Source of the DNA: Amoebophrya sp. A120
Lineage: Eukaryota > Protista > Dinoflagellata
Direction of reading: 5' to 3'
NCBI GenBank assembly: GCA_905178155.1
Contig: CAJINV010000005.1
Span: forward strand, 8,344,556 to 8,408,555
Length of the DNA: 64,000 nt
Positions 2,095-61,246 of the stretch are shown piece by piece. The notes under the pieces are model-generated. The model was not told the origin of the DNA, did not search any database, and was given only the letters and a program-made list of their open reading frames with translations. How positions within the stretch are numbered: position 1 is the stretch's first letter; every line of letters starts with the position of its first letter. The position numbers and the translations under genes were made by a program.

Positions 2095-3118
2095 AAAAAA
2101 AAAACAACAGCGCCACCAGGAGCGGCGGGAGCTGCCGCAGCTGCGCCACCGGTCGCACCGATCGCACCGTTCTGGCAAGAACAAGAGGACCTACCCAATC
2201 CGCAGCCAGGTACCTTGCAAGTTTTTTTCTTTCCGTCAGCATGATTGGAGGAGGAGGTCCCAGTGCACTGACTTCTTGCTTGCGACAAACCCAAGGATTT
2301 GGCGCACGCTCGCATCTTCCCAAAGAGATGCAACAGGCGCGGCGCCGTTGTAAAGCCTGAACTGACAATTTCTATAACTCAACTATACGATTAGATGTTG
2401 TAGTCGAGACAATGAGGTGCAGGTGGAGTACTAAGATTAGCATGAAGAAAGAAGCCAAGTAGCGCTTGTCCACGACTTCTACTCGAATGCCTGCTCAAGG
2501 GATCGATGGGGCGACTAATTGGACTACTAGCAAATTAATGTTGCTCACAGGAAATTTCGATGTTCCGTATGCATACTCGTAGAAATGTGGTTTCTGAATG
2601 AAAAAAGGTTCTTTCGATCCTATTTATTGAGCAGCAGCGTCCTCACGAGTGGCATGCTCTATGTACGAAAAAAACTTGACGACATTTATTCTTGTGATGC
2701 ATTTATATGCGAAATTACTATCTCTTCCCTCGCAGGAGTCGACGAGCAAGGTGCGACCCCCTCGGATAAGGGTGTTCGCGAGCCGAACCAGCGCGGGAAG
2801 TGGATGGGCTACGACGTGAACGATGCCATGGATCCCGGGCAAGATAGAGGCAGTGGCTTCGTTTTTGCTGCCAGATTCAAGGACGACTTGGAAACCGGGG
2901 CAAAGGGGGTGGCGCTCGCGTATCCAAGGCAAGACGGGGTGGAAAAGGGAAAAGTAAAGGTGTTGATCGTGCCATTCAAGCCCGGGGGGGAGGAGTCTCC
3001 CGTGCGGATCGAAATGGTCTCGGCGGACGACCTCGTTCTCTCGCTCGCGTTGCCGCAGCTCGGATATGGACGCGGAAGTAAAGCGACACTGGAAAACGCT
3101 TTGCTCGGCCCGGATTCC

Positions 3119-3380
3119 TATGCAATGTAAAAATGTCTGTGTCTGGAAGGTTGCAACCTGTAATGCTAATTCTGGATCGTGCAAAAATCTGTGTTGCATG
3201 AATGCCAAAAGCTGTCCACTTTTGACCAAGTTGAGAGGAAGTTTCTCATGCAGGATAGGCACGGTACGGATCTCACAGAATCTGTCATGCTAGGTCTCGC
3301 ATTCCAGACCTCATGGCTTATGCAAAACGTGCATGACAAGTCTCAGAACCTTCCAGACCCAGACATTTTTGCATTTCATA
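3119..3380. mobile_element. Introner, family A
   Basis: TATGCAATGTAAAAATGTC...GACATTTTTGCATTTCATA; perfect TSD attcc; removal restores frame. Confidence 0.93.
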
Positions 3381-3511
3381 ATTCCATGGTGCGCGGGGTG
3401 TCGGTGAAATTTTCGGACCACGGACAAGACGCAAAAGAGATTTTTTTCTCCGCGGCCGCGTGCGCCAGGTCCTTCGGGTGGACAGCGGGGTTTTACGTGC
3501 AACAGCCTGAC

Positions 3512-3831
3512 TATGGGAGTGTAGTCAGGATTGAAATCGACAAAGTTGAAATAACTTATAATGCATAAAGCCGATACCAGTTGGAGGCCTAATTTTAAAG
3601 CGGTGCATGACAAATTTCGGCACCGTCTAAAGTCAGTTTGTTACGCTGTTTGGGCACAGAAGACGGCTTTTGTCATGCTAGTTTAGTAGCTCTATTTCAA
3701 ACCCTAAACAGGCTCACAATCGCCCTCACTTGCCATCCCGGCAAGACAGGCACTTCATGCCTTGCATTTTCTGCATGACAAGTTATTTTTTCAACTTTGT
3801 CGATTTCAAGATCAAGCCTGACGCTTCCATA
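3512..3831. mobile_element. Introner, family B (TATGGRAG..GTCAGG..TTGAAATCGACAAAGTTGAAA)
   Basis: ~45-bp imperfect TIR; perfect TSD ctgac; removal restores frame. Confidence 0.9.
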
Positions 3832-4335
3832 CTGACGCCGGTGGCGCGGCACCAGCCACGGAGAAGCCGAAGTTCGCCGCCGCAGATGTTGTGCTGCGTG
3901 ATCCTGCGACAAGCACTGATTTGGAAGTCCACGTTTTGGAGGCTGTCGGATGGCCTTACGGACGCGGCGGGGACGGACTCGATTATGCGCTCAATAAGTT
4001 GCCTTTGCCACTAACGATCGGCGATGCTGACGGTCTCGACACCAAACCCAGGACGACTCTGTTCGCACAAAACGCGTTTTTCTACATCTTGCAGCAGACA
4101 GAAGACGCATCCATGGTAAATATGCAACTGCGGAGCTTTCGGCGTATGTGTCCTGGCAACTTTGAGAAAGAGGTGTGCCGTATCCTCAATGAAAACGTCT
4201 TAGACCAACCAGTTTCAGCTTGGGAACTCTGCAACACAAATCCAGAAGTTTTGGAAGTCACGAGTGTGTGGCCGCAACTTCGTCTCTGTATTGTGGCGCA
4301 GCTGGCTAGCAAGGACAGTCGGGCCATGATATCCA

Positions 4336-4484
4336 TATCCTGTGTAGTGCTCACAGCATTACAAATGCCAAGGCACGATTGAAAATGGCACTCATGAGAA
4401 TGCGCATTACGAGAAGGGTGCCTGTGATTGCGTGAAATCTACTGCATTACAAGTCTGGGGTGGGGACGTTTTTTGCGCAGGATA
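4336..4484. mobile_element. Internally deleted introner, family C
   Basis: Right end GTGGGGACGTTTTTTGCGCAGGATA matches family C; left end is only TATCCTG; TSD atcca/tgcca. Confidence 0.55.
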
Positions 4485-5076
4485 TGCCAGGGTGATCAAA
4501 GCAAAGCAAAACATGAAAAGCACAAAGGCTCCAGCTGCAGCGCGGGCTGGAGTGGGATTCCAGACTTCGGGCAGTTCTCCGTCATGACGCATTGGCGGGA
4601 CAGATTCTTGACGGGGCTGATTATCAATCCAGATGTATCATGTGCATTTGGCATCCCAACATGCCGCCACATCTTTATGGGTCTCCAAGGCCGCGGCTAT
4701 TGCATGCGCTTGAGGTCCTGTTGCAATATGACGCGCCGCGGCTCGTCAAGCTTTTGCCCAATTACTCCAAAATGCTCATAACTCACGATGCAGGTAAGCG
4801 CTTCACACTGGTACAACTTTTAGTATACAAATAAGAGGATCTGGGCCGGGCTGTGCGTCATGTCTTTTATGTGCAGCTCGAGGGCTTGTGCGGTGCGAGC
4901 TTGGCTTGTTTTATACGTCGGAAAACCGGCTCAAGGAGGTGGTAGCATTCGCTTGCAGCCTGAACACAAGCCGAGCACTCGCATCACAATAGCCCTCCTT
5001 CGAGTATACCTTACAACTTCTTCGCGCTAGTAAATAAGTTTTCAGAAAAATCTTTGACGTTCGCTGTGGCCTGAAG

Positions 5077-5406
5077 TATCAAAACAAAAATGCCTTCCTC
5101 CTCATAATTTTAAACACCATGGGAGTAAGAAAAATGGTTTACGAGGGCAATCGAGAGCGCTTGGTTCTATTTTGTAGACGATTTGTTTCTGTTCTTGTCT
5201 AGTTTGCAGACGATTTCTACTGAGCCAGCATCTGTCTTCATGCCGCATAACCAGAATTCGACTCGCCGCACAGGCTAGAAATCCGAGGGCCTGCTCGTCG
5301 CTGCAACACGACAAACTAATTTGTGTACTACACAAATTATTTGATCATGCTTGATCAGAAATTTCTTTTTGAGCAGTATGAGGAGGGGGGCATCTTCCTC
5401 ACAATA
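5077..5406. mobile_element. Degenerate introner, family F-like
   Basis: TATC..ATGCCTTCCTCCTCATA and TATGAGGAGGGGGGCAT..CACAATA are inverted ends; TSD not recognisable. Confidence 0.55.
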
Positions 5407-5634
5407 ATTCGGATGATATTGGCACATCATACACTATGGTACATGCCGCGTATGCTATGCGCGATCACGTACACTCGGCTAGTTTGTTAGAATGGGGCTG
5501 CGAAAGCCGTGAAATGACCAAGACTACCTCGATACAAGAGCAAACCCAGCAGGGAACGTACTACGGTCGAAAAAATCATTACGGTCACCTCAAGGGCAGC
5601 ACGAAGATTGAGGCCGACTACTCGAAGTACGATT

Positions 5635-5902
5635 TATCCACAGCAAAGAGATCTGGGTCTGGAAGATTGCCAGGTTTCTCGTGCATATTTTGCATGATCC
5701 ATGATGCCTGTCGTGCATGGCCGAGCTTCCCACATTTGTGGAGTGCTTTCTGATGCCTATGCCGCATGTGTAGAAATGCCGTACCCGCGTAGCACAAACT
5801 AGACTTCTGTAACTTGGTGGTCATGCTACACAGATTTTTTTAGAATTGAAAGACAGGCAGCGTCACACCAGGCCTAGACATAATAAGTATTTGCATTGCA
5901 TA
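5635..5902. mobile_element. Introner, family A (reverse orientation)
   Basis: TSD cgatt; removal joins DYSKYD to LLKDEW. Confidence 0.9.
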
Positions 5903-6568
5903 CGATTTGTTGAAAGACGAATGGAGGGGTCCTCTGAAAACGAAAGAGATCGGTAGCCTTGATCGTTTCGCGAGGAGTAGTGCTGACGAGCAAGCGAAAA
6001 CGACGAATGAGGCCATTGTGTGCCAACGTAGCGAGGCCGACAACCCGGTCGAGGGTCTCCTGCTCCTCCTCCCGAAGCCCGATCAGCAACTGGTGGGAGG
6101 AACCTCGGCACCGTTTGCGAAGCCCAACGAGGCGATGAAGTTTCGGGACTTCCTAGAAAAGTACAAACATCTGCGACTTTTCCTGCGCGGGCCGGACAAC
6201 GAACCCTTCAACATGCGTGTGTTCGACAACGCAGAGGGGAAAAAACTCTTGAACAAGCTGGCAACGGAGGACGAGCAGGCGAAGATTACGTGGGAGGCGC
6301 TGGTTGGTGGAAAAGTTGGCGGTAATCAAGGAAAAAGGAGCCAGTCACGATGTGCCTTTCGCGTTTTTTATTTTTTGCCACGGCATTGGTATTTGAATTT
6401 CGTTTGTCATCAAGATATGCATTTGTTGTGTCTGTGTGTATAGGAAGTCGATGAAAACAACATTATATATAATTGTCTTTGTCGATGTTTTGTACCATGA
6501 CGCCTTGATGCAGTCGCTTCTGTAGAAGTGAGATGGCAAGCCGCGAAAAGCGTTTCCTCAGCACGGGA

Positions 6569-6851: not shown

Positions 6852-6910
6852 CGGGAACTGGCGTGCTTATATAGCATGAGCGATCCTCGTGATGAAGTTT
6901 CTTTCTTGCA

Positions 6911-7135
6911 TATGAGAGTGCACAACTCACCCTCCCCCTCATTTGTAGGGCATGAGGAGCAATACAAGCGTCGGCAAGAGTGCAGGCTTTGCATGACGAA
7001 TTCGCCCCGGATGGTAGGGTTGTTTGGGCTGCCAGAATCTGTCATGCAAAGAAGTGCCACGAGGCAAACGGAAAGGCGCGTTTGGTATTCAACATGACAA
7101 ATGAAGAGGGGGAGGGGGAGTTGTGCACCCTCATA
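6911..7135. mobile_element. Introner, family D (TATGAGAGTGCACAACTC...)
   Basis: TIR seen; TSD ttgca. Confidence 0.92.
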
Positions 7136-8918: not shown

Positions 8919-8972
8919 CAAACGAATATTTTTCGAACCAAAAATATATTTTTGATAAAAAATATTCGTTTG
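8919..8972. repeat. AT-rich imperfect palindrome; its left arm recurs as a direct repeat at 11857-11876
   Basis: CAAACGAATATTTTT ... AAAAATATTCGTTTG with a central CAAAAATATATTTTTG palindrome. Confidence 0.7.
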
Positions 8973-9259
8973 GTAACGCATTGAGTGGTGTCGCGAACGA
9001 CATTGGATACCGTGCAGCGTTTGCGCCCTGCGGGCGATCTAGGACAAGAGATCGGCCGGTGTCGTAGTCGTTCGGAAATCTACACATAACTTTTTTGCAG
9101 TTGCAGTTCCTTTCTGCAGTTGCGCACTCGCACGTGTTTCCGCTGAGAAATTCGCCTTCGTTATTTCTTTCGGCGGAATTGTCGTACCTGGGGCGGTTTA
9201 CTTTTTTCCTTTTGCGCACGTTAGGAAGATGCGTAGTGCTTTGCGATCCGGCCGCGAAA

Positions 9260-10930
9260 ATGTTTGACGCACGCAGCGCGCGCTTGCTTGCGTCAGTAGT
9301 GGCGATGGTGTGCGCGTGGTGTTTTGTGCTCCGAGATCAGGAAAAAAATTTGGCGCGCTGCGCGCGCACAGGTGTCTTTGTTTTGGCAGTTGCTTGCGAT
9401 GCCCATGTCGCGTTCGGCAATCGGGGGCCGCAGGCGGCCGAGAAAAAAAATAATGCGCGCTGCGCGCGCACAGACGCCCTGACCTGCTTCGGTCATTGCG
9501 TCTGGCCGAAAAAATTTTCTTGCAAACCTGGCGCTGGCGCGACGGACCGAAGCTTTTTTTTCGCGCCCAGCAGCCGGAAGCTGGCCGACGAGAGAGCTTT
9601 CGAGCGCTGCGTGCGCGCAGGCGCCTCCCTTGGCCTTGGAGCGGGGAAAATTTTTTGCAGCGCGCCCGGCAGTCGGGGGCTAAGAGGAAAAAAATTTTCG
9701 CGCGCTGCGCGCGCGCAGACACCTGAGTTGGCTCTCGCGCGGGGTGAGGGCGCGGAAAGCTTTATTCGCGTTCGGGAGCCAGCGGCCTACCGGGGAAAAA
9801 ATGCTCGCGCGCGCGCTGCGTGCGTCCAGACCCCTTGGACTGAGGGCGCGGAGGGTTTTTGTCGCATGCGGGCGCGGGCGGTTGGTCGGAAAAAAAAATT
9901 CCGCTCGTTGCGCGCGCGCAGACATCTCGGCGAAGGGGCGTCAAGCTAACCCCGGGGGCTGGCCGGATAGACTGGCGGGCAGGCACGGTGGGTCGCACTT
10001 TGTTTTTTCGCGCCTGGCAGTCGCAGCTCGGCTGGAATGCAAGTTTGCGCGCGCGCAGGCGCGTCGGCTTGAAAACGCGGACAGCTTTGCTCGCGTCCGG
10101 CAGCCGGGGGAGCGATGGTCGTGAAAAAAAATCTGGCGCGCTGCGCGCGCGCAGTCGCCTCGGCCTTATAGCGGGATGTGTTTTCCTCTTCGAGATCTGT
10201 ACGTGCGGGCCTGCCTTAAAAAAGTGCGCGCCTCGCGCACTCGCTGCCGCCTTCGCCTAGAATCGCGGAAAGTTTTCTCTTGCCCGGCAGTCGGAAAGTG
10301 GCACGCAAAAAAAATTTCGCGCGCTGCGCGCGCGGGGATGCCGTGGCCTGCGAGTGCGGAGAGCTAGCAGCTTGCTCTTACCCGGAGCCCGGGGCTTTGC
10401 CGGGAAAAAATGTTGCGCGCGCGCAAGCGCCCCGATTTGGTAGCGCGAATAATTTTTTTGCGAGGTGTGCGCGGAGGCCTGCCTGAAGCACAATGCTCGC
10501 GCGCTGCGCGCGCTCGCTGGCGGACGCCTTGGCAGGGGGGCGCGGAATTCTTTTCACGCCCGGCAGTCGGTAGCCGGCAGAGTGGGCGCGCGGAAAGCGC
10601 GCAGAGTGGGCGCGTGGAGTTGTTTCTTTTGTCACGTTCGGCATTAGTAGTTGGCTTGGAAAAAGATTGCCTTTGCGCCGTGCGCGCGCAGAGGCCTTAG
10701 CCTGAAGGCGCCGTAGGTATGTCTTTACCTCGCCACGAGGCGGTCCGGGGCTGGTCGGATAAAGAAAAGGTCTTCGCCCGCTGGGCGCGTGCAGAGGCTG
10801 CCCGGGCCTGAGGGTGTGGGGCGTTAGCGCCGTGTTCCGCGACGACTGAGGGCGCGGAGCGTTTTTCTCGTGACCCCTGACCGGGCGCCGCCCGGGTTCG
10901 TTTTTTTCTCTTCGCGCACTGCCCGCGCCC
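9260..10930. repeat. Degenerate ~95-100-bp tandem repeat (A-tract followed by GCGCGCTGCGCGCGCA)
   Basis: Motif seen at ~9341, 9441, 9600, 9691, 9800, 9891, 10041, 10125, 10311, 10405, 10491, 10671 and 10771. Confidence 0.8.
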
Positions 10931-11550
10931 AGACAGTCTCCTGTGAGTGTTGTAAACGAAATGGCGCTCGGGCCGTGCCATTCAATGAATGTAGTTTTTT
11001 TTCACTCCCCGCGCAGCGTGGCGAGCATGCCACCCTAAAGGCCCCGCGCATGCTCGCCCTGTCTCCGAGGTATAGTAGCTACGAAAGCCGCACGCTCGCC
11101 CGAGTAGCAGTCGTTTTAAGAATGACAAATAGCCCGCGAAAAGGGTGGGTCTTTGTTGGCCGTCTTTTTTGTGAGGGCCAAACCACTGCGCAAATAGCTC
11201 GGGTCTCTATCCCGCCCGCGTTTTTGCGGTTCGCATGGGGAATCTTGGAAACCCGGGGAAGCCATGGGGCACAGAAGGGCGGGAAGAAGACTAAAGAAGT
11301 GGGCACCAACGCAACCCCAACCTGAAGGATCGGGAAACAAAGAGGCTTCGGGGGTTTGGGCTTCGAGAATGACGGGGTAGGCCCGTGGATGCAGATGCAG
11401 TCGTCCAGGCCGTCGCTGTCTGGCAGTCGCTCAGGTCGCGCCTGCAGACACCTATCTGCAGGCTAGAGCCATTGCTTCTTCCCGACGAAGCAGTGTTTCA
11501 GGTTTCTGCCTGAAGGAGATAGACGCCTTCATTTTGGGTCCATCTTCAAT

Positions 11551-11630
11551 CTTGGCCCTTCTGCGGCCGCCCTGGCCCTCCTTGGCCTTCTGAGGCCGCC
11601 GTGGCCCTTCTTGGCCTTCTGAGGCCAAGA
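11551..11630. repeat. ~29-30-bp tandem minisatellite, about 2.7 copies (CTTGGCCTTCTGAGGCCGCC...)
   Basis: Seen directly in the sequence. Confidence 0.7.
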
Positions 11631-12019
11631 AGGGTGCAGGGGTCCGGGCAATCGGCCAAAAGGATATATCTTTTCAAAAGCATATTTTTTTCAAAGGGAT
11701 ATTTTTGCGATATTTTCGCCAATTCCTTGCCTTTTTATGCTTTTGGTTTCTCTTTTTCTTTTTCTTTTCTGTCTTTTTTCTTTTCTCTTCTTTTCCTTTG
11801 TGTTTCTCCTTATCTTTGTCATTTTCTCATCCTCTCGTATTCAAATGAATATTTTCAATCAAACGAATATTTTTCGTGTTCTTTCTCTCCGAGCTCAGAC
11901 TCCGAGCTCAGACTGTTTTCCTTATTTTCATGAACTTCATTTTCATCTTCCATTCGAGGACCCCGACATATTTTTATTTGCACTTGATAGCGAAGCAGAG
12001 GCAGTAGCGGAACAAGGCG

Positions 12020-24389: not shown

Positions 24390-26452
24390 GTGGGTGGAGA
24401 TTTACTTGGGTAGTAATCGGGAAAAAAAAATTTTGCGCTTCTTCGTTTTCCGGGGTGATTTTTCGATAAACTATCAGTTCGAGTTCGTCGTTTCAGTTTT
24501 ATTTCACCGCACGAGAGTTTCGTTATCAGCCTCTGTTTATGCCGCGTTGTGTTCGTCGTTGCAGACTTTGATTTCTGTCAACGCCGGCGGGTCTTGCGCA
24601 AGAACTAAGATGATTTCACAACTTGGTCGTGCCGAAAGTAATGTTTCAGTTTCAAAATGTAAGCACAGCTGCAGGATGAATGTTTCCGCCTCATCGCGAA
24701 GAGGAGGATGGCAAGAACGTGCTGCGCAACTTGCCGCGCCTTTGTGGAGAAATAGATCAAGCAGGAGAAAGATTTGAGTATGCATTTTTTGTACGCGAAG
24801 CGAACGACTTGATCTTGAAGCCGTTGTCGTTCTTGACTTTGAATTTGAAACACCAAAGACGAAGGAGTGCAGCACATCTACTTACTGTGTGGGGCTCGAG
24901 AAGTGGCTTCTGCACCAGCGAAACAGTCATGTTCAATAAAATGCAAGTATACTACAACACGGAAGATAATGAACATCAGGAAGTTGCTGTGATACGACTC
25001 GCGCAAGGAAAACAAGATCCTGAATCCACCGCTATAGAAAAGAGCGCGCAGTGATTGTCATTGTGATTGACCTGTTTGTTTGCTAGAGGCTTTTTGTTGA
25101 TGTTGCTCCTTTTAGTCCGAGACGAACAATATTAAAGCGAGATGAAGCAGCGAACGACAACCACTGTAGAGACGTTTTTTACGCTGTCGAGAACGAAGTT
25201 GTACATTTAAAGCTGTGATTAACGTTCTGGCTTCTATTTTCTACGTGTGATAATTCTTCTATTCAAGAGACGAGTTGCGTGATTGACTCTTTTGCTCAAG
25301 GACCTCCTTTTTGACAAACATAAGCATAAATCAGTAGTATAGTCTTACATCATCCTATCACGGCAACTGATCTCATCTCTTTTGCTAGGTAAAACTCATA
25401 TTTAAAGTCTGAATTCAAATCGAAACGAAAAACTTCTGCCAACATTTTTTTCTTTTTAACATTCATAGGATTGCACAAACCACTTAGCCGGTGGTTGCAA
25501 GCACATAGATGTACGTAGTCGGGTGAAAAGCCATTGCCAATTTTAAGTCGTTTTTTTCATATAGGTTTACATCGCGACTACATCTGCTTTTTTTGAAACG
25601 TGCTGGCAAATTATGCACTACCTTCACGGGCAGCAGCTTCTCTTCCTTCCCACGACATCAAGCCGGAGGGGAACAACTGTCTCGACGTTGTGCGACGCTT
25701 GTCCGACGTGCCGCTCGATGCAGAACGGCCTGTCGTGCTTCGTAGCAGTGTCAGGAGGGCTTCTTCTTGTCACAAACAATAGCGAAGGACAGTAAAACCG
25801 ACAAAATGGTGGTCGATTATTTTCTGTGTGGTGAGCAGAAGGGCAACAACGTCGGCTGCACCAACTGCCGTGGAGATGAAGGACCATTTGACTTTCTTCA
25901 CATGTGTTCCTGGGACAAGGCTTCTTCGATAGGCGGGCATGAAGTAGATCATGACGCAGCATCTTCAAGAACTACGATCAGCAGAGGGACAATAAGAAGT
26001 GGTGGTCGCATAACGATACCGGCACCAATTTTGCAAGAACTAGTCAACGACAAGGAAGAAGAGCGAGATGTACAAAAACGACCCTGTGGTGCTGGTGCAT
26101 TCCTGGACGAGGATATTCTGGTGCGCCATCAACATGCCGGCAGTCTTTATTCGGCGTCGACTCCGCTGGGCAGACCCAATCTTCACGCTGCGACGCGAAC
26201 AGCACTCAGCCCCGCGAGTTGTGTAGTGAGCTGGCACTGCTAGTATTAACCTTAAGCAACCAGGACGAACGTTCAACGACGGATACTAGAAGCCAGCAGT
26301 TATGTATTGCACTAGTTCTTGCCCCATTACGACCTCATTACATCACACCACTTGACGAGAGCAGCCTTTTCTTCACCTCATTTTGCCAGTAAGTACGCGA
26401 CGAACCGTAAAGTTATAGACCGAAGCAGCAGCAATTATCCAGGGCCGCGACC

Positions 26453-44400: not shown

Positions 44401-45994
44401 CACAGCATCAGCAGACAACTGCGAGCGCCAATGCAAGTGGAAACACGAACAACATGACTAACACGAGCACTTGGTCGCCGGAAATGATGCCGCAATTGCC
44501 ACCAATGGGTCTGTATGCATTGCAAAAGTAACGTACTAGTATAAATTGCATTACAAATTTGGTCAAGAAGAAAGTGGGATTTGTAATGCTGTTTTACCTT
44601 TGGAGGAAGATTTGTCGTGCATATCTGAAATTACTACGAGTGCGATAATTTTGCATTTCATAGTCTGATCCCTACCTCCGCCACGGCGCCGCAAATTCCC
44701 ACTTCTGGGATCTCCGAACGAAGAGACAGCACAACCTGGGACCTACAAAACCAGTCGCAGAGTCAGGTGCTGCGGGAGATGAACGATGTCACGACGTATC
44801 CGCAAGAGATGCTGCAAAACAATGCGGGCACGATTCCCCCGAACAATGGAGGTGCAGCTGGGAAGGGCCGGGCGGGACTGAGTGAGGTTCTGTTCAGTGT
44901 TCAAGGGCAGCAGCAGCTGCAACCCCAACAACCGCAACAACCGCACCAGGCTCCTCTAATCCAACCAGCGCCGGCTCCGAGGGACACACAAGCTACTCAT
45001 ACGATGAGCGACGGTACTTCGGTTCGTATCAACTGCAAAAATGTCTGGGTCTGGAAACTTGTAATGCTGCGTTGGGAATAGTGAATGCTCTGTAATGCAG
45101 CGGCAAGCATGAGAAATATCTGCGCTTCTTTTTGTTGCGTTTTTCGCATGACAAACTGCGTTTTTGCATGACAGGCAAAAGGGCCTCGTCTTGGACACGC
45201 ATCACAAACTTTTTGGTCATGCCAGACAAGCATGACAAGTCTCGAAATCTTTCAGACCCAGAGATTTTTGCAATCCATAGTTCGTAACACGACTCCAGCG
45301 GGCAGTCCGGCGATTCATGCGCAGGATGTCCCGGTAGATGTCCACGTTCTGCAGCAGGTCGCGTCTTATGCGTTGCAAATATGTTTGGGTCTGGAAGAAT
45401 GCAGGAGTTTGTCATGCAGATTTTGCATGACCCATAGGATCTGTGATGCATGCCTTAGCACCAGAGATTCTGCGACGGCTTTCTGATGCTCTTACCGCAT
45501 GAGAAATGCCCTCTCCGCATAGCAAAAATTGGACCTCTTTTGCTGTTCATGCAATACAGATTTATTGTACAAGCCAAAGCCAGCATCACAAGCTGCATCC
45601 TATCAGACCCAGACATATTTGCAGTTGATACGTCCGCGGGGTCTTTATCCTGGTCGGTCAGTTCCCCTGGTTTGCCACCGCTGAGCGGGGGAGGTGGTCC
45701 TTCGGGAGGGTACGGTTCGGGCGGTGCTGTGGGCGAGCTGTATGGAGGACAAGCGGGGGGATCGTCGTCTTTGGGCAGCTTGGGAACTACAAATAACGCA
45801 GGAGGAAGTTCTTTTGCGGGAATGCAGCAGCAGCAGCAGCAGGGTGCTAGTTTTGGTTCTGCGCAGCAGCAACATCTGCAGGTTCCGCAACAGCAGTACG
45901 GGGCCGGTGTGCAGCCACAGCAGCAGATTACTACACCGCAGCAGCAGCAACAAGGGCAACAAGTGGTGCAGCAGTCCTCACAGGCGGTAGCTGT

Positions 45995-52000: not shown

Positions 52001-53166
52001 TGGTGCTGGGAACAACTACAACAATCTCCCGTCATCTTCTGCGTCGGGACAAAATCTGAATCACCAAGCCGCTGCCGCACAAGGTGCAGCTACTACAACT
52101 CTTCAACCTGGGATGTTGAACCAGCAACCCGGGGCGGGGCACCCGCAGGGGTCGCAGACGCAGATGAGCGCCGCTATAAGCAGCTCGGATTTCATTTTCC
52201 CCGACTCGCCAGATTTCAATACGAGCAGCAATAACAACACCATTACCGCAAAGGGGGCTGCAACAATGCCGAATTCCAACACAAGGAAAGAATCTCTGGA
52301 CGATGTGTTTTTTAACATACCGTCCGCCTTTTCAGCGCCGCAGCAGATGGTATATATAATTGCGAATTTTATTGTTATTCGCTCGGTTTTGCATTTTGCT
52401 ATTGCTTGTATGTTGTAGTTGATCTTGATTCGTCTTGATGCACGACCAAGGATGTTGACCATTGTTTCCTGTAAGAACTACAGGTGGTCGATTTTACTTT
52501 TAGCATGACCACGACGAAATCAAGAAGTGGACTTTCGTTGTTGTGTTGTTATCCAGAATTGAATTCTGTTCTTTCGTATGATGAAAAACTGAAAATTTTT
52601 TTTCTCAGGTCAACAAGCTTCAAGCCCCCGGACAACAACTGAAGCCGAGCTCTAGTTCGAGCGATGTGGAGCATTTGAACCTGCTGGAATTTGACGACAC
52701 GCCGCGAACTTCAGGCGTTAATAACGTGACAGCAGTACCACCTGTACCTCCTCCTCCGCCCGCTACAGCAGCTGGAGGGGTGCAGCAACTACAGCAGCCA
52801 CAGATCATTCCAATGCCGCCAAGCACTGCCACAGCCACGACAAACAACATCAAACTGCCAACGATACCGAATGCACAGACCTCCACGAATTTTCTTCCAA
52901 TGCCAGCGGCTACTTCATCACAAAGTACTACTGCTACCGCTGGGACCGCCCTTGTAACTTCTGCCCAGCAACAAGCGTTGCAAATGCAAATGCAACTACC
53001 TCCCCAATCGCAATCCAGCGATCCGAATGTGTGCAAGGTGAAAGAAAAACTGCAGTCGGAGAAAGAAGAAAGACGGAAGCACCAGGCGCAGGAATCGCAG
53101 AGCAATTTGGATTTGCTGTTGAAAAACGCAGATGCAGATTTGTTCGGCGACTTGGAACCAAAATAG
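26453..53166 (+). CDS. WNK: Giant WNK-family Ser/Thr kinase, ~6,283 aa; 16 TIR-element introns plus 2 GT-AG introns (36829-37089, 52350-52608); kinase domain at ~36600-37890; S/E/K-rich N-terminus and Q-rich C-terminus
   Basis: Motifs GAGSYKQVY (Lys in subdomain I), EVAWN (no Lys in subdomain II), IHRDLKCDNIFING, IGDLGL and SIVGTPEFMAPELYDE are WNK hallmarks. 26714 nt minus 7862 nt of introns = 18852 nt, and every junction checked stays in frame. Confidence 0.88.
30045..30127 (+). repeat. Degenerate telomere-like (TTTAGGG-type) tract inside the 2.67-kb element
   Basis: GGGTCTAGGGTTTAGGGCTTGG...GGTTTAGGGTTTGGGGCTTAGGGCCTAGGG. Confidence 0.6.
30581..31898. repeat. Diverged ~590-bp direct duplication (30581-31168 and 31296-31898); a second pair lies at 29714-29820 and 30433-30540
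   Basis: Colinear shared blocks, for example ATAGGTTTGGACCC..GGAGCCGGGG and TTCGGGCTCACCGA. Confidence 0.8.
32717..33946. mobile_element. 1.23-kb TIR element acting as an intron in WNK
   Basis: TATCGAAGAAAAAAACTATGTGACTGTAGGTCTT and AAGACCTACAGTCACATAGTTTTTTTTTTGGATA; TSD ggccg; frame restored. Confidence 0.92.
34007..34329. mobile_element. Introner, family F
   Basis: TIR; TSD cggga. Confidence 0.95.
35801..36041. mobile_element. Introner, family K (TATGGSGTTCTCAAACGTTACATTCTCAACTG)
   Basis: 32-bp TIR; TSD agctg. Confidence 0.95.
36113..36262. mobile_element. Introner, family G
   Basis: TIR; TSD tgacg. Confidence 0.94.
36449..36597. mobile_element. Introner, family G
   Basis: TIR; TSD cagag; removal gives VVEQSPKGRF at the start of the kinase domain. 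Confidence 0.95.
37377..37582. mobile_element. Introner, family L, in the kinase activation segment
   Basis: Imperfect TIR; TSD gggta; removal gives HSGYVAQSIVGTPEF. Confidence 0.92.
37904..38169. mobile_element. Introner, family A
   Basis: TIR; TSD actcc. Confidence 0.94.
38229..38491. mobile_element. Introner, family A (ends ATG)
   Basis: TIR; TSD aggag. Confidence 0.93.
38567..38884. mobile_element. Introner, family F
   Basis: TIR; TSD gcaca. Confidence 0.93.
41452..41704. mobile_element. Introner, family A2 (reverse orientation)
   Basis: TIR; TSD tccgt/cccgt. Confidence 0.92.
41761..42030. mobile_element. Introner, family A
   Basis: TIR; TSD tggaa. Confidence 0.94.
42978..43237. mobile_element. 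Introner, family A (reverse orientation)
   Basis: TIR; TSD attgc. Confidence 0.94.
44514..44662. mobile_element. Introner, family G
   Basis: TIR; TSD gtctg. Confidence 0.93.
45027..45279. mobile_element. Introner, family A2
   Basis: TIR; TSD gttcg. Confidence 0.94.
45367..45630. mobile_element. Introner, family A (reverse orientation)
   Basis: TIR; TSD cgtct/cgtcc. Confidence 0.93.
45996..46031 (+). repeat. (CAG)12 polyglutamine tract within an extended Q-rich coding region
   Basis: Seen directly in the sequence. Confidence 0.9.
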
Positions 53167-53404
53167 GACGAAGAATTCCCAAGAGGTGGACCAAGCAGTT
53201 GTGTGTAAAGTGCTTCCAGCGATGAAACAGATTCTGACTCTGTGGCCTCCGCCTCGAATCGGCGCTGATTTTTACCGCGGGTCAACTAGTGTGACGAATG
53301 AAGATCGCGAAGTTTTTACAGCAAACTGTCAAAGGCAGAAGGATTAAAGTATTTCGTGTCAAGGTAGGTGTATACTATCGAGATTTTCCGAGCAGAAGTG
53401 CGCT

Positions 53405-54469
53405 TCCTATATACTATACGGCAAGAAAATCGATTGACGCCTAACCCGATTTCTACTAGTAAAATCTTACTAGTAAGGAAAGTCCGAGAACTTTATTAGT
53501 AAACAACGTTGCTAGTAATCTTATCCGGACAAGCAAGCAAAAAAACTACTAGTAAGCGTACTAGTAGAGAGTTTACTAGGAGCAAGCTTACTAGTAGAAA
53601 ACTGCCTCGCGGGCCGGTTCGCCCCGAGCTTCCGCCACAGAGCTCGCCCGCGCTGCTTGCTTCCCTTGCCCCCTGTGGAGGACCTAGCGCCGAGCAACCC
53701 GTGCCTGTGTGGTAGCGCGGGGCGTGGCGCGTGTTCCCGGGAAAAGGGGGCGCAGCCGTGGGAGGGCGAGTCCTTATTTATCTGCCCGAGGGTGGCGCGG
53801 CGCGCGCTGCTGGGCCCGCAAGTGCAGGCGATCTAGCAGCTCCGGCCCCGCCACGGTGCCGGGGATGGCTTTGCGCTTTGTTTGGGTCGCCACATTTTGC
53901 CCCGCGGGGGCGGCCCCCTCTTGGTGTGGATGCTCCCGCCGCCCTGCACAAAGAAAAAAGCGCCTTTTCTCGATGCCTTAAATGGTTATCACACACAGCG
54001 GGCCCAGTCCCACTGTGCTGGCTGCACCTGCCTGGCAGGCCAGGTTCTCTGTCGCGCACGCAGTTTCCACAGCTGCGCCCCTATGTGCCCCGTCAAAAGC
54101 AGCCCTGCCGCCTTGGAGGCGTAACTAGCATGACGAGCAGCCGCCCGCAAGTCTCGCAGCCTGAGGGGGTGCTCGCAAATTTATTGGGAACCCGCGGAGC
54201 TTCTCCTCCGGAGATCGCAAATTTATTGTTCTTTCTTTCTCCTGGACCCGGAGCTTCTCCTGCTCCTGGGGCCTGGGGCGGGCCCCTGTCACACCTATTG
54301 TCTTTCTCCGGGGGGCTCAGGCGCACGGAAAAGCCCTGCGACTGCAGGGTTTTCGTCCCCCCTCCACTCCTTCCGCGCCCCTGCAGACGTCTTACAGGGA
54401 GATCGGGCCCATCGTTTCTTTGTCTGCTCCATACCTCTCCGGCGGTCGCGGAGCGACCGCCCGTGCTAG
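53405..54469 (+). mobile_element. Putative non-autonomous Helitron-like element
   Basis: 5' TCCTATATACTATA; 3' perfect hairpin GGCGGTCGC-GGA-GCGACCGCC (54441-54461) followed by CTAG; no TIR. The flanks are not the canonical A|T. Confidence 0.6.
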
Positions 54470-54496
54470 ATAATACTATCGAGATGTTCCGAGCAG

Positions 54497-55512
54497 AAGT
54501 GAATCACTTTCAAAAGAATCATAGGGCCGAAAAAAAAAAAAAATTTGCGTCCCCAACTGCCGTAGCGCCTGCAGCTTTTTTCCCCGCGCCAGAAACAGCT
54601 GGTCGGTAGATTGCAGTGGGCGAATGCTTGAGAAGGCTGCGACCAAAAGCCCCAGGCGTCGCATTTTAGTAAGGATGTAGTGCGCAGAAGATGCCATAGA
54701 AGTTACCACAAGACCAGCCCCAAAGCATCACACCGTGGCGCATAATGCTACCCCGCATGGTGCTACTGGCGCACTATTCTTACTCTTGCCCTACTCTACT
54801 GTTACCAAGTGGCGAAAGAAGAACAGTGGAGGTGTAATCACTTGAGATGCTCAGCCTGTTTCAGACGAAAAAAAAGTCAAGCCCACTTGATATCTGCTTG
54901 GGTGATTTGACGCGAAAAAGACGCGCTTCGGGCATCAGTTTGATGCCAAAAGTCGCGCTTTTTTGCAGGGGTGATTCAAGCAGATACTAAGCGGGAGGAG
55001 TCAAATGAATCATAGGGCTAATTGATAGCTACAAAACGCAAGGTGATTACACCTCTTTTTTCGCTTCGAAAAAGATGAATTTTTGGCAAAAGTTGTCACT
55101 TTTTCACAAAATGCGACACCCTCGGAACGCTACGCCCGACGGTATGGAGGTGTAATCACTTCAGTTTTGTGGTGTCGCTTTTCCTATCTTTAGCAATGGG
55201 CTTTTGCTTGGTATTTTGGGTTGCGAATGCTTCCCCCGAGTTGTTTGCAAGCTATTCAGGCGCGATGGCCCCAGCATCCACCCATGGCCATTGCGTTCGT
55301 CCCCCGACCGTAGCCACCAACCAAATAGCGCAAACCTTATCGAGAAAGGCGCGACTTTCCTGAGAAGCGTCGCTGTGTCTCAGGTTATTTGGTTGTATAT
55401 GTTGGGCGCTACTTTATGCGTGCGAGCCGTGCCATGCACTGCGGTACACGGAAATTTTTTTTTTTTCCGTATGGTGATTCATTTGTAATGTGATTCATTT
55501 GCCCCTGTGATA
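54497..55512. mobile_element. ~1-kb TIR element of the ...GATA type with a damaged left end
   Basis: Left AAGTGAATCACTTTCAAAAGAATCA is inverse to right TGATTCATTTGTAATGTGATTCATTT..GTGATA; internal GTAATCAC/GTGATT motifs recur. Confidence 0.55.
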
Positions 55513-57264
55513 GTCAAGGTAGGTGTACATTACCGAGATTTTCCGAAAAGAAGTGCGCTTAGAAAATCCTTTTTTCAAGAAATGCTTTCTGTACATTTTC
55601 AATTGATGACGTTTCTCTATTAAAACTCGTAATCTTCCAGGGAGATCTAGATCTTGATCTAAAGTCGTGTCGCAGCCAAAAAAAAGAAAGCATGATAGGC
55701 TTGATCTAAACAGGAACAGGAACTCCTACTTTTCATGATACAAGCACATCCTCGAAGCAAAATTGAAGTCACAATGTCTGAGATCGTATTCTCAGTTTTA
55801 AGGGTATAGTAGAGTCAATGTCAACAAGGTCGGGAAAGCTGTCCCGATTGAAACCAGATTGGGCAGTTTCTATGGCTGTGGTCGCAGCAAAAAACCTGAA
55901 TGTTATATTTTTTTTCAAAACTGACGCGAAGAAGGTCAGCGCGATAAAGATCGCGATCGCGTAGCAGTAAAGATTTTTCGCAATTTTACCATATTATGAG
56001 AATACTACTTTATCGCAGTACGTTGGATTCTTGGCATTGGTGCGTATAAAAATCAGGAAATAAAGCAAGTAGGCGCCGTACAGAAGAGACTCTTTCTTAT
56101 TAAGAGCCTTCGCTTGGTGAAAATATTAAGCTTCTTGTGCTTTTTTACCTAGGAAGAAGGCAAAGGCGACGTGCTAGCTGTGGCACGACCTGTAGCATTA
56201 GGTGAGGAGTCGTGGTTTGTTTGAAGAACTGCGCTTGTTGCAGCTCCGTCCGTAGCTTATTAGACTCCTATTATTGGGCTCGGATGACAATTATATTTGT
56301 GTGATAAAAACGAAAACGATCGCGATCGCGATCACCAGAGGGGCGCTGTGGCGTAGTTAGAGGGCAAAGCAAAGGAACGGAACGTAGATGCGGAATAGGA
56401 TGGAAAAGCGCTTGGAAAAACAGAGCGAGAAAAGAAAAAAAAGTATCTCAAAAAAGGGAAGATAAAAGAAAATTCACGAAGAATGACTTCCGGGCTTGCC
56501 CAGCTTCGTCGAGAAGTGGCCTAGATGGGCGGACTGATGTTCTTCAAGTAGGTCAAAGGTCCCATAAAAATCGGGTATGATTTACACGAGAATCTCCTCC
56601 TCGTTCCGTGTGAGAGCGAGGCCTTGCCGTCTTCGTTGCTATGTATAGTTCAAATGAGAATTATCTTGAGATCGTTCCTTGATCTTGTCGGGACCACTTG
56701 ATTTTGATAAGTGAGTGATCAAATGAAAGAGACTTTTGGCATCGAATGGCTCTGTGCACGTGGTCTCGAATACAATGTAAAATTTTGATTGGAAAATAAT
56801 CGGATCGAAAACGTACTTCCGATCATATGACAATATCGCACTGAATCTTCGAAAAATATAACTTTCGATCCGTGCCCGTCATCTCATTGGTATTCTATTT
56901 TTCTAAAAGAAGGAAACTCCGAATCGAAATGAAAATTGTGATCTCTTGGAGTAGAAGCGAGGCCCGAGAGGGTCGCTCGGATTATCTTCCTATGTATTTC
57001 GCTAAAATTGTGATTGTGGTTGAAGTTGTTGTGTGTAATGTTGGCAGGTCGCTGTCTGGCTTTCTACCAGGAAGGAGTAGTGGATATAGCACGACGTCGA
57101 TATCATGTTGAAGAGGAGCGTCGCTACCGCTAGATATCTTTTCATCTGCCGCTAAGAGATACAACAACTCACCCGCATTGGACTAATTTAGCGACCACCT
57201 TGTTTTTAGCGAGGTTGGTAAAAGTCTGTGTAGTGAACGAGAAGTCATAGCACTAGAAAAAAAG

Positions 57265-59077
57265 ATGTTCCGCAACACCACCACTCCCTTCGGCACAACT
57301 ACTAACCGCGACCGCCTCCCCTCCAGCAACCCGAGTTCGAACAAAAACTACCAGTCCGCGCTCCCAGACGAGCATGATGAGCAACTCGCTTCCGATTTTG
57401 TCGGTGGTTTAGCCGGACTCGGCCAGTCGAGCCGGTTTAATTCGCAGTATGGGGGAGGTAGTTCTTCCTCCAGCAGGGGAACTGCGGCGTCAAGTGCTTT
57501 GTTTAGTAAACCCAGAACACCGCAGACCCCAATCAAAACGTCGAAAGAGGTAGTGGAGGACATTGTGATGGGCGATGCGTCGTCGAACCATAATTACAAC
57601 AGCTCCCGAGGACATCAATCGTCGTCAAACTGCGGCCTCTTCCAGCGTTCCGCACGGGACCTGGGACAGCTCTTCGCCCGGATAGATGCGGCGGATGGAG
57701 ATGAGCACGACAATAATCACCACCCGATAAGCTCGGATCAAGATGAGGAAATGCTGGATCAGAATGGGAAAAACGCATCACAGAAGTCCTCCGCGTCCTC
57801 GTCACACACCGTGGAACCAGTCCCGGAGTACGAGTTGGATACAAGTACACTAAATAACAGCTTCAGCAGCATGCTGCCAGGTGGAACAATGTTGAATAGC
57901 CGGCAAAATGGAGCAGGGGTAGTACCATCCACGAACATCATGAACATAGCGAAAGGCGCGTTTTTCTTCCAGGGAAATCCGCCCGAGGGCATGATGTTTC
58001 CGGCGGGTGGTGCGTCGAACAACGGTCAGGTGGTATCAACATCTTCCCCTTCCAGTAGCGACAGCGCCACCAGCAACCCAAATCGAATACCGTTGCAGCA
58101 AATCCCCGTTTTCGTCAGTTCTATCGCCCAGACGATTTTTAACAGCTGTGTTCTAGCGCTCGGGTTTTGGGCTTTGTACAGCTTTTACGCGATGATCCGG
58201 GATGACATTCAGACGAAGGTGGAAAAATACTCGCAAGAGATTTTGGACCAGATAGAGAAATGCAGCCACGACTACACCGTGAACAAGTATTGAAATGGGT
58301 TACGTTTTTTTTTACAACAAGATTCGTCGACTCGCTGAACACCTTTTTTCGTGCTGTTTGCATCATCACTAGTACAACACCACCTACACCCGCTAGTACC
58401 GGGATGAACAAATTCAAATTTTACTACAAGGTTGAGCTGCAGCATCACATGATCTTCACACCATATTATCAAAATCAAACTTTCTCAATTAATACCAAAC
58501 TATCAGGTGCGGCATCGACGTCCGTCCGGCTCTGGAACAGCCCTGCCGGCAGTGGCAGGCCTGTATGGACCAAGATCCTTTGCAGGTTGCGTACAAAACG
58601 AAATTTTCCGCCGCGACCTTTGGCGAGGCCTTGAACGGCTTTTTTTCCGAATTGGAATGGAAAACCATTGTCGGGTTTCCGCTGTTGATGGTGGTGGTGT
58701 TGATCGGGTTCAATATGCTGTTTGGGATGATGAACAGAACGGGTGGTGGGGGTGGGAGAAGTGGTACGACGGGAGGAGTTGAGCAGCAGCAATATCATGC
58801 GCAGCAGATGCAGCAGTATAACAACCAAAATCTTCCCGGCTCTTGGGGCGCATCATCATCCTCCTCCTACCACCAGCTTCCTTATCCGCAGCCACAGCAG
58901 TTTCTGGAAGATAATTTCGATTTCAGCGGGATGAAGGGAGACAATGACTATCGGAGTAATCGTCCTGGGTGTCATTCTACTTCTTCTATGATGCCAGCAA
59001 GCATCACAGATATGGACCACAGCGCTAGTACAACCGGGCGCGGTAGCAATTTACACCATCGAGGAAGGTTTTACTGA
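57265..59077 (+). CDS. Brr6/Brl1-family nuclear envelope protein, ~530 aa; GT-AG intron 58287-58506
   Basis: Two TM segments flank the four-Cys loop CSHDYTVNK|CGIDVRPALEQPCRQWQACMDQDP..KFSAATFGEALNGFF, typical of the Brr6-like C-C domain. Confidence 0.88.
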
Positions 59078-60047
59078 TTATGGAATTGTTTGTGAAGAAG
59101 ATGCCACGCACGCACAAAGCGGAACGCGACGACAAAGAGAACTCAACTTAGCAGAACTACTAGACGAGGAACTTTTTTACTTCGATCGTGTGTACGCAAG
59201 AATTGGCTCCTCGAAATAGTGAGTACTTTGGGTTTTGACAGAACAAGCGACTGATAATTGAAGATTCACAATGTAATTCTAGACTTTCACTTCCAGAAGC
59301 CAGGTGGGAAAAATGGAGACTCGACCTTAATGGCCGCTTGTTCCACCCTGGTGCGTTGTTCGTACGGATTTGAAGTGTGTCGCTCTTTGTGCCGTTGCCG
59401 TTACAACACTAAAATTTGTTAATGCCGTCACCGTTCATTTACTTGCACTATCGTTCTCGTTCTCGTGCATCGTTCCAATAACTAGAATTTTGAGCATTCA
59501 TCGTAAAGATCTCCTGCAGTAGATCCATAGTTGGTTTTGAAATTCTTGGTTCGTGAACGTCGAGAACAGACAAAATTAATTTGCGTCTCTCTCGTGATTT
59601 ATCTTGCGGCCCCGTCCACAGATGTTGTAGCTGTAGGTGCTCGTCGTGCGAAACTATGTATAAGGCAACGATGATCACTGTCGTCCTACTCGTTCGTCCA
59701 CCGTATCCGTGTGATGTCAGAACGCCTTGTCGTGCTGCAGTGGCCGGATGATCAAGTGCAAATTATCTTCTTCCTATTACAGGTAAAAGGAACATCAAAA
59801 AATTTCCCCATCTAGTAAGATCCAGTGGGTCCTGTTGCGCCCCGGATGGGGCGTCATGATACATAAGTAGGGCATTGTTCTCTATCGAGTTACTAGTGCG
59901 CACTCGCTGCAATGTTTTTCCGACTTTGATACGCCCAAAAATAACATGTTTTGCTTCTCCGCAGCACTAGCTAGACGTTTCTAGTTTGATGTCACTTGTT
60001 TTAGCAGCATGGAATCAAAACCCCTAGTAGGAAAGTAAAAATCCATC

Positions 60048-61246
60048 ATGCCACGGCACGAGCGCGCCGCTGCCGGCGGAGGTGGGCGGAGGCGGCAACG
60101 GAAAGGGGATCTTGCCGCTGGTGCAGGAGAAGAAGATAACTCCACGGCGATCCAGATAGAACAAGAACCCGAAGTAGCCCCACCGCCCCCACCGCCCCCT
60201 CCACCACCACAAATAGCGCCATATACTTCTCCTCCGCCGAAGTCAAACGCCAGTCTCCCAGACACGGCGGCCGAAGTCCTCTCGCCGAGTAGTAAAGCAC
60301 AACCATCCTCTTTATCCCTCGCCGCCGCCATGGCGGGGGGGAGCAAGGGACCGCAGTCGATGAACAGGCCCAGTGCGAGACACTCCAGGTTTCAATCGTT
60401 GGCGGCGCAAGATTTAGACGTGAGAAAAGACCGGCATTTGGACACGATGCAGTGCGTGCAACTGCCGAAGAACCAGAAGAAGCCCATTATGGATTGCAAA
60501 TATGTCTGGGTCTGGAGGAATGCGAACTTGTGATGCAAATTTCACAACACATGAAAATCTCTCATGCATAGGCAACAAAAGCTGCCCACTTTCTGTCACC
60601 AAAATGTGGCATTTGTGATGCGGATTCGGCATTGCGGAAGCTTCTCGAAATCTGTGATGCTAGAGCTTCCATGCCAGACCTTATGCGTCATGCAAAAGCA
60701 GCATGACTCTTCCAGACCCAGACATTTTTGCAGTTGATACCCATGATTGCGGTACAACACACCTTCTGGCTGGTGTTCGGCGGCATGCCGTTGGTGATAT
60801 TGTGGGCGGTGTTCGGCTGCTTAATGATCTTCCCCGGGGCTTTGCTTGGTGCTTACAGTCACGCCTGGAACTGTTGGGGCATTGCGGCGATCATATTATA
60901 TCCGTGGAAGAAGGATAAAAACATCTGGCAGAAACCAAACCAACGCGCAGCGGCGGGTGGAGTGGGCAATATTCTGTGGTTTCCCTTTGGATTAGTCCTG
61001 TTCTTGCTCCACTTACTCGGGGCGTTTTTGTGTTTACTGTCCGTCGTCTGCATCCCCGTGGCGTGTAATCACATGCGACTCGCGAATATTGCTTTAACCC
61101 CGTTCGGGTTGGCGTTTACGCGGGACGACGCGAAGGAGGCAATAGTTCTGAAACCCAGAGAAACCGTGGCGAGTCAGATGCATTCAAGGATATCGACGCG
61201 GGGGAATTTCTGGAACTCGAAATCCAAAGCGAGTCAGATAATGTAG
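60048..61246 (+). CDS. YccF-domain (inner membrane component domain) protein, ~313 aa, with a Pro-rich N-terminus
   Basis: FWLVFGG...ILYPW and GNILWFPFG..LHLLGA..CIPVA..MRLANIALTPFG are two YccF-like repeats. One introner removed gives 942 nt in frame. Confidence 0.8.
60488..60739. mobile_element. Introner, family A
   Basis: TIR; TSD cccat. Confidence 0.94.

Follow-up and report, generated by a model that had tools for sequence, protein, structure and literature searches.

Introner elements in a 64,000-nt stretch of Amoebophrya sp. A120 and a likely fixed register for their removal

Amoebophrya removes more than 60% of its introns although these lack GT-AG ends. The introner elements (IEs) of Amoebophrya sp. 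A120 are known to carry inverted repeats (IRs) of 8-20 nt and direct repeats (DRs) of 3-5 nt, to have non-canonical ends and to form predicted hairpins that join the exon borders (Farhat 2021, PMC7789003). An alternate splicing mechanism was proposed, and the spliceosome was described as nearly complete with U1 undetected (Farhat 2021, PMC7789003). The present analysis concerns 64,000 nt of A120 DNA (contig CAJINV010000005.1, positions 8,344,556 to 8,408,555 of the forward strand; from here on the window), in which 45 IEs are listed. The element class and the general idea of hairpins and non-standard splicing are already published (Farhat 2021). Added here are junction evidence that neither the orientation of an element nor the letters of its target-site duplication (TSD) matter for removal, one perfect canonical site that is bypassed, and a likely fixed register of 1+4 nt, equal to the TSD length.

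The published A120 IEs come from the same organism, have IRs made of TAT, 7 variable bases and AAA, and form non-canonical introns of about 240 nt on average; the window elements are like them. An orientation test and a register analysis based on mismatched TSDs are what differs from the accessible text of Farhat 2021. The IEs of strain A25 are likewise non-canonical introns bounded by IRs and DRs, with T at +2 in the predominant motifs, but their predominant ends are TT-NN and their IRs begin with TTA and two purines (PMC7789003). One window element, at 29601, carries an A25-type TTA end. The nonconventional introns of euglenids and diplonemids share with A120 the ends paired through terminal inverted repeats (TIRs), TSD-like repeats, slidable borders and an unpaired sequence that is longer 3' of the stem (PMC12501133, PMC12621601, PMC11282704). 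Euglena introns differ by CAG/CTG-type motifs at +4 to +6 and -8 to -6, an exonic purine and release as circles, whereas A120 has UAU/AUA at +2 to +4 and -7 to -5. In Fritillaria borealis, introns derived from miniature inverted-repeat transposable elements (MITEs) with TIRs and TSDs are removed with non-GT/AG ends (PMC13326754, PMC11282704), and their removal by an altered U2 spliceosome is a precedent (PMC13326754). Fritillaria has the specific ends AG-AC and AG-AT and a duplicated U2AF, whereas A120 is unconstrained at +1, -2 and -1. Like those of A120, the introners of Micromonas, Aureococcus and Polarella are non-autonomous elements with TIRs that turn into introns once inserted (PMC11282704, PMC12130899). 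Unlike A120 elements, those of Micromonas carry or co-opt canonical GT/GC and AG from element and TSD; Aureococcus IEs also have canonical motifs, whereas A120 elements need no such sites. Some A120 introners have been ascribed to TIR transposons (PMC12130899); Farhat 2021 found no cognate transposase in A120 (PMC7789003).

Introner elements and their exact removal

The window elements have TAT…ATA ends with 5-bp TSDs and are identified as the A120 IEs of Farhat 2021. The list was built from a scan for TAT-like…ATA-like ends, to which long and decayed copies were added; 885, 3512, 4181, 4636 and 20629 entered it through contig joints and database proteins. With an IR match of at least 17/26 and a DR match of at least 4/5, the scan returned 30 elements, against 0 in each of 5 shuffles. 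A TAT start is present in 41/45 elements, and the 5-bp TSD is perfect in 32/45. As in the published IEs, a direct repeat within the 3-5-nt definition stands at the exon/intron borders, the IR consists of TAT, 7 variable nt and an A-run, and families are repeated across the genome (A, A2 and G in the window, with high element depth in the DNA-like run X5). TIRs, a TSD of fixed length, occurrence in either orientation and the lack of coding capacity also place the elements among MITEs, or non-autonomous TIR DNA transposons; Pfam gave 0 matches in the 8 open reading frames (ORFs) overlapping the two longest elements. A pattern scan of one other assembly found the same families at 151 loci. From these, 136 distinct elements were taken, 43 of them strand-called, whose flanks have no long match to window exons; 262 of their 272 arms start with TAT.

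Removal was followed in four contig sets from one study (X1-X4), probable RNA by guess, aligned to 12900-24500 and 33900-45800. Among the joints listed for 12900-24500 (of 20 in all), 15/15 skip exactly the element plus 5 nt, and these 15/15 show the removal with non-GT-AG ends described by Farhat 2021. Further along, X1 record 5 skips the reversed element 42978 (265 = 260+5), X4 record 13 skips 44514 exactly (154), and in X1 record 4 the positions 41447 and 42031 are separated by 50 nt, which fits the removal of both 41452 and 41761. Database proteins add the removal of 3119, 5635, 37377, 37904, 38229 and 38567. In X5, element ends stay joined to their flanks.

Element-free contigs could in principle be DNA empty sites or copies of a somatic genome, as with the internal eliminated sequences of ciliates: X1-X4 are RNA only by guess, and an empty site is identical in sequence to a seamlessly spliced product. 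We regard this as extremely improbable. Contig depth is unequal among neighbouring genes (X1: about 138, 32 and 26), the intergenic bin 19479-19865 has zero depth in all four runs, and single contigs lack all nine elements of one gene while being otherwise letter-identical, all of which argues that X1-X4 are RNA. X5 retains the elements, and introns of this kind have RNA-seq support in Farhat 2021.

Seven TSDs without any G had been proposed to leave no usable GT, GC or AG ends (attcc 3114, cctac 21012, tcaat 21439, acacc 22627, ccaac 29596, actcc 37899 and cccat 60483). All seven lie where expected, preceding 3119-3380, 21017-21267, 21444-21633, 22632-22787, 29601-32267, 37904-38169 and 60488-60739, and such ends are available in 0/7, in any seamless register and with extensions past the TSD included. 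The right copies are imperfect at 21444 (TCAAT/TCAAA) and 22632 (ACACC/ACACA), and the TSD at 29596, though present, flanks a 2,667-bp TTA…TAA element, not a TAT…ATA one. Removal at the G-less sites is supported by contigs in 3/7, by protein in 2/7 and by ORF continuity alone in 2/7 (29601, 60488). G-less TSDs occur at the chance rate (7/45 against 8.0 expected) and are therefore not selected against; the strand-called elements of the second assembly give 7/43. A GT/GC..AG register is available in 2/40 elements and GA..AG in 3 more, and any GT/GC/GA-AG register in 2/43 of the second assembly. The elements do not show the canonical U2-type pattern of GT/GC, or dinoflagellate GA, with AG in one register.

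Alignment of element interiors bears out the opposed orientations of three families: A (13039/38229/41761 opposite to 5635/42978/45367), A2 (16975/21017/45027 opposite to 20283/41452/62198) and G (36113 opposite to 22632). The strand-called elements of the second assembly comprise 14 forward and 13 reverse copies of A, 4 and 11 of A2, and 1 without family. Unspliced or offset-spliced copies, which would have contradicted the original prediction, were not seen in the probable RNA contigs: the G-less 21017, 21444 and 22632 and the reversed 20283, 22632 and 42978 are all removed exactly.

For 44/45 elements an in-frame GT/GC..AG alternative exists no farther than about 35-40 nt away; such sites are used in 0/17 joints checked. 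At 23563, a frame-neutral perfect GT..AG at 23560-23776 is bypassed in X1-X4 and in protein P0001 (PGSSS, not PASSS); its 5' end, GTATAT, is like that of the canonical intron at 52350. Canonical registers are ruled out by the RNA contigs at 23563 and 13554, where testable. The elements are listed below; k counts the bases of the left TSD that remain in the upstream exon, and P0001 to P0003 are database proteins.

885-1157, +, element TAG…ATA; decayed TSD GTCCG/CTGTG, removed as element+5, k at least 4; P0002
1214-1492, +, element; TSD CAGTG/CAGAA, k at least 4; P0002
3119-3380, +, family A forward; G-less TSD ATTCC; removed in P0002
3512-3831, +, element; TSD CTGAC; P0002
4181-4484, +, element; TSD TGCCG/TGCCA, k at most 4; P0002
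4636-5431, +, 796-bp element; decayed TSD AGATG/CACTA, k=3 or 4; P0002
5635-5902, +, family A reversed; TSD CGATT; removed in P0002
6569-6851, +, element opposite to 14711; TSD CGGGA; past P0002 stop; sequence only
6911-7135, +, element; TSD TTGCA; past P0002 stop; sequence only
13039-13300, +, family A forward, TAG start; TSD GACAC/GGCAC, k at least 2, AC..AG excluded; joint 13035-13303, X1-X3
13554-13840, +, element; TSD GGAGC/GCAGC, k=2-5, GA..AG excluded; joint 13550-13843, X1-X3
14711-14990, +, element; TSD CTGCG; scan, ORF continuity
15240-15526, +, element; TSD CAGCG/CAAAG, k at least 4 inferred from contig piece starting 15531
16634-16907, +, family A forward; TSD GTTTT; joint X1-X4
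16975-17227, +, family A2 forward; TSD CGGCG; joint X1-X4
17307-17569, +, family A forward; TSD GGACA; joint X1-X4
18704-19027, +, element in RING finger (Pfam), opposite to 34007; TSD GAGCA; joint X1-X4
20283-20543, +, family A2 reversed; TSD CGCAC; joint X1-X4, P0001
20629-20939, +, element; TSD CGAAA; joint X1-X4, P0001
21017-21267, +, family A2 forward; G-less TSD CCTAC; joint X1-X4, P0001
21444-21633, +, element; G-less TSD TCAAT/TCAAA, k at most 4; joint 21438-21634 (both=4), P0001 FKK
22092-22359, +, family A forward; TSD TGGAG; joint X1-X4
22632-22787, +, family G reversed; G-less TSD ACACC/ACACA, k at most 4; joint 22625-22787 (both=5)
23227-23504, +, family A forward, TAC start; TSD TTGCC; joint X1-X4
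23563-23774, +, element; TSD AGGTA/AGCAA, k=4-5; joint 23561-23779 (both=1), X1-X4
23854-24063, +, element; TSD CCAGC/CCTGC, k=3-5; joint 23851-24067
29601-32267, +, 2,667-bp TTA…TAA element; 22-bp perfect TIR, G-less TSD CCAAC; ORF continuity only
32717-33946, +, 1,230-bp element; TSD GGCCG; GC..AG register exists at k=1; ORF continuity
34007-34329, +, element; TSD CGGGA; scan, ORF continuity
35801-36041, +, element; TSD AGCTG; scan, ORF continuity
36113-36262, +, family G forward; TSD TGACG; interior alignment, ORF continuity
36449-36597, +, family G forward; TSD CAGAG; interior alignment, ORF continuity
37377-37582, +, element in kinase domain; TSD GGGTA; removed in P0003
37904-38169, +, family A forward; G-less TSD ACTCC; removed in P0003
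38229-38491, +, family A forward, ATG end; TSD AGGAG; removed in P0003
38567-38884, +, element; TSD GCACA; removed in P0003
41452-41704, +, family A2 reversed; TSD TCCGT/CCCGT, k at least 1; X1 record 4, P0003
41761-42030, +, family A forward; TSD TGGAA; X1 record 4, P0003
42978-43237, +, family A reversed; TSD ATTGC; X1 record 5
44514-44662, +, family G forward; TSD GTCTG; GT..AG at -3 nt unused; X4 record 13
45027-45279, +, family A2 forward; TSD GTTCG; contig pieces end at TSD; ORF continuity
45367-45630, +, family A reversed; TSD CGTCT/CGTCC; interior alignment, ORF continuity
60488-60739, +, family A forward in YccF-domain gene; G-less TSD CCCAT; ORF continuity only
62198-62449, +, family A2 reversed; TSD TGGTC; interior alignment
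62837-63102, +, family A forward; TSD GTTCG; interior alignment

The cut register

A perfect TSD allows the two cuts to slide together, and mismatched TSDs limit k. RNA contigs limit it to at least 1 at 41452, at least 2 at 13039, 2-5 at 13554, 3-5 at 23854, 4-5 at 23563, at least 4 at 15240 (from the contig piece starting at 15531) and at most 4 at 21444 and 22632. Protein P0002 gives at least 4 at 885 and 1214, at most 4 at 4181 and 3-4 at 4636. The values of at least 2 at 13039 and 13554 exclude AG-ending registers there. This use of mismatched TSD pairs, suggested with the original prediction, yields k=4 as the sole value common to 12/12 informative introns (8 of them from RNA contigs); the competing k=3 and k=5 fit 8 of 12, and others 6 or fewer. 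At k=4 the cuts lie 1 nt before and 4 nt after the TIRs, and the introns read N-U-A-U…A-U-A-N-N-N-N. One fixed register (1+4) set by the TIR ends is the likely reading of these sequences. At 885 and 4636 the TSDs are nearly erased and the removed length is still the element plus 5 nt; the cuts are therefore set by position and not by the identity of the TSD.

TIR-guided removal with a register that varies inside the TSD, for example through pairing of exon and TSD, would require no fixed ruler. Under random per-intron registers, a register shared by the 8 RNA cases has a chance probability of 0.06, each intron taken alone allows values besides k=4, and the legend of Fig. 3 in Farhat 2021 calls the sites variable, all of which fits such a process. 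With the protein-based cases included, the chance probability for all 12 falls to 0.0016; the introns with nearly erased TSDs still lose the element plus 5 nt; and the motifs of Table S4 all have T at +2. We consider a variable register improbable. In that table the predominant non-canonical motifs are NT-NN in 9/9 for A120 and TT-NN in 9/9 for A25, and the text calls the splice sites variable and the border unknown (Farhat 2021, PMC7789003); the published figures may already favour k=4. In the accessible portions of the introner literature searched, neither a fixed register nor a test of orientation was reported for A120.

At k=4, position +2 is T in 45/45 window elements and +3 is A in 44/45, and 5/5 canonical introns checked start with GTA. 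Excision had been described as apparently independent of splice dinucleotides. This is supported for GT, GC and AG, which are dispensable, but at k=4 not for +2U/+3A, which are kept as in canonical GUA.

Terminal inverted repeats and the removal machinery

It had been argued that the TIR stem guides removal and that the TIR hairpin ending in UAU/AUA probably defines the junctions. Among the 136 elements, arm positions 1-3 are complementary in 96-99%, positions 4, 5 and 7 pair in 42%, 44% and 26%, and the TIR core pairs in at least 90% at most positions from 8 to 30, with predicted duplex energies of -13 to -54 kcal/mol. The UAU/AUA cap is thus a 3-bp A-U helix beyond a frequent internal loop. 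The predicted probability of its first pair is 0.06 at 22632, 0.09 at 23227 and 0.02 at 45027. Because the cap is predicted to be mostly open in 22632 and 23227, which are removed exactly, the cut cannot be set by the end of the stem by itself; junctions defined by the hairpin are not supported as argued, the cap being predicted unpaired in several exactly spliced copies. What stands of structure guidance is that removal is TIR-anchored and works in both orientations. The structural part does not follow from this, since sequence signals in the TIR are equally orientation-symmetric: both arms carry the same TIR, and orientation therefore cannot separate structure from sequence. Similarly, strand-specific branch-point or polypyrimidine signals are not required in the element interior, but they may be encoded in the TIRs. 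Both the terminal UAU/AUA and a stretch from -19 to -15 that is rich in U (T in 35, 26, 42, 43 and 40 of 45) are shown in either orientation, so only interior signals are excluded. On these predicted structures, the likeliest arrangement is that the core duplex or a bound protein joins the ends and the terminal letters set the register.

The arms themselves are mixed. At TIR positions 4-7 the 272 arms have CAAA in 110, GCAT in 40, GGAT in 28, CAAG in 26 and CAAC in 22, the two ends often differ, and family A favours G at position 4 in the left arm and C in the right arm. This palette suggests imperfect TIRs or arm exchange.

Our preferred reading, which we hold with even confidence, is that the elements are MITE-like IEs likely cut at a fixed TIR-set register, with an altered major spliceosome as the probable agent. 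In place of scanning by U1 and U2AF, the ends would be brought together by the paired core of the TIRs (arm positions about 8-30) or by a protein bound there. The spliceosome core would recognise U at +2 and A at +3, just as in canonical GUA, with any base tolerated at +1, the 3' cut would be placed by distance from the terminal AUA and not by AG, and the first A of that AUA, at -7, would be the candidate branch point. Since the 1+4 ruler equals the 5-bp TSD, a copy inserted into an exon would leave no trace after removal, whichever way it points, and this would account for the invasion by these elements. A more specific version, in which the major-spliceosome core has lost its need for G+1, A-2 and G-1, reads N-U-A at the 5' site, cuts 4 nt past AUA and overrides GT-AG, is put forward tentatively, at somewhat below even confidence.

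The altered spliceosome is favoured by UA at +2/+3, by the A25 motif, by a near-complete spliceosome without detected U1 and by the Fritillaria precedent. Both strains keep 83/89 spliceosomal proteins, and A120 keeps U2, U4, U5 and U6, with U1 not found (PMC7789003). The A25 IR start resembles, in sequence, GUARG with a changed +1.

Several points weigh against this reading. A normal spliceosome requires G+1, A-2 and G-1 in step II. No residual preference for the canonical bases is seen, with G at +1 in 16/45 (p=0.33) and a 3'-terminal AG in 1/45. Arm deviations are nearly symmetric (5' 0/1/3 against 3' 1/2/0 of 87), the 3 versus 0 deviations of 87 at arm position 3 being too weak to show an asymmetry by transcript direction, and G at +5 has no transcript-direction bias (35 versus 37 of 87; discordant 22 versus 24, p=0.88). 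The conservation of +2U/+3A may come solely from the need of a transposase for TAT. The register is drawn from 12 introns, of which 4 are known through translations in protein databases and 2 through the boundaries of contig pieces; the narrowest ranges in any one of them, 4-5 and 3-4, do not fix k=4 alone. X1-X4, from one study and RNA by guess, show the major path only.

A non-spliceosomal endonuclease acting on the TIR duplex could also make a staggered cut, 1 nt out on the 5' side and 4 nt on the 3' side, with an RNA ligase joining the exons, as has been proposed for the nonconventional introns of euglenids and discussed for those of diplonemids. The lack of any G+1 or terminal-AG preference, the good GT..AG ignored 2 nt away at 23563 and the stable pairing of the TIR core all fit this scheme, and Euglena introns are similarly asymmetric, 5'-N3CDG…CH'GN5-6/R (PMC12501133), and leave as circles without lariats (PMC11282704, PMC12621601). 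The euglenid signature itself is not found in the window elements (+4 is T in 41/45, and the first downstream exon base is a purine in 28/45 at k=4). Three further points speak against the scheme: the terminal 3-bp helix is predicted to be mostly open in the exactly removed 22632 and 23227; UA falls at +2/+3 in this register, where canonical introns have it too; and, if TT-NN is the true A25 border, A25 would be cut at the IR start and not 1 nt before it, with UA still at +2/+3. The original prediction had left the choice between a modified spliceosome and a separate nuclease-ligase open; we keep both, the former as an even prospect and the latter as an unlikely one.

For the altered spliceosome, the fixed register makes exact predictions: an N/UAU 5' site (the slash marks the cut), a candidate branch point (the A at -7), defined ends, and the contacts of U6, U5 and Prp8. 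If the spliceosome is responsible, conserved contacts to end nucleotides can be lost altogether. If the ruler pathway is true, insertion in either orientation is silent.

Host genes and other features of the window

That the host genes lie on the + strand was borne out, as removal of each element with one TSD gives fused ORFs of 642, 858, 470, 1880 and 4340 aa. Exact removal is the best of three offsets (against +1 and +2) in 34/40 elements. Exon 21639-22091 is 100% identical to P0001, a 708-aa protein of Amoebophrya sp. A120. Two host genes are the following.

20081-24389, +, gene encoding P0001 (708 aa); its nine elements are all gone in single contigs
26411-53166, +, very large protein-kinase gene; 16 elements and 2 canonical introns (36829-37089, 52350-52608)

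The kinase gene has about 6,300 codons (summed ORFs) with a long Gln-rich C-terminal region, and its motifs are presumably WNK-like; no full-length protein for it was matched among candidates of 3918-5000 aa. The genes at 1-6440 and 12008-15720 are paralogous and share the element at 1214/15240. By reading of the sequence, element 885 is in the first paralogue only (compared with the region near 15190 of the second) and 14711 in the second only, which indicates gain or loss after the duplication. The P0002 stop is at 6443, upstream of the elements at 6569 and 6911, which may be in the 3' untranslated region or outside the transcript. An Rfam search of the window gave no match.

A run of raw RNA reads that carries the same species label (X9), aligned to 33900-45800, gives 112 reads, all partial, with element pieces and foreign flanks, mostly at 90-95% identity. 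This identity and the foreign flanks indicate a different strain or a relative in which related elements are transcribed. Inside the long element at 29601-32267 about 720 bp are duplicated, and telomere-like repeats (AGGGTTT) stand at 30022-30110. The ends of a 2.9-kb intergenic unit at 8937-11877 form an 81% inverted repeat, and a GCGCGCTGCGCGCGC-type motif occurs in it 12 times at a spacing of about 90-110 bp; the unit is possibly another TIR element or a satellite. In the intergenic region 53358-55560, a 48-nt repeat is present in three copies about 1.1 kb apart, and a TACTAGTA-rich array lies at 53545-53600.

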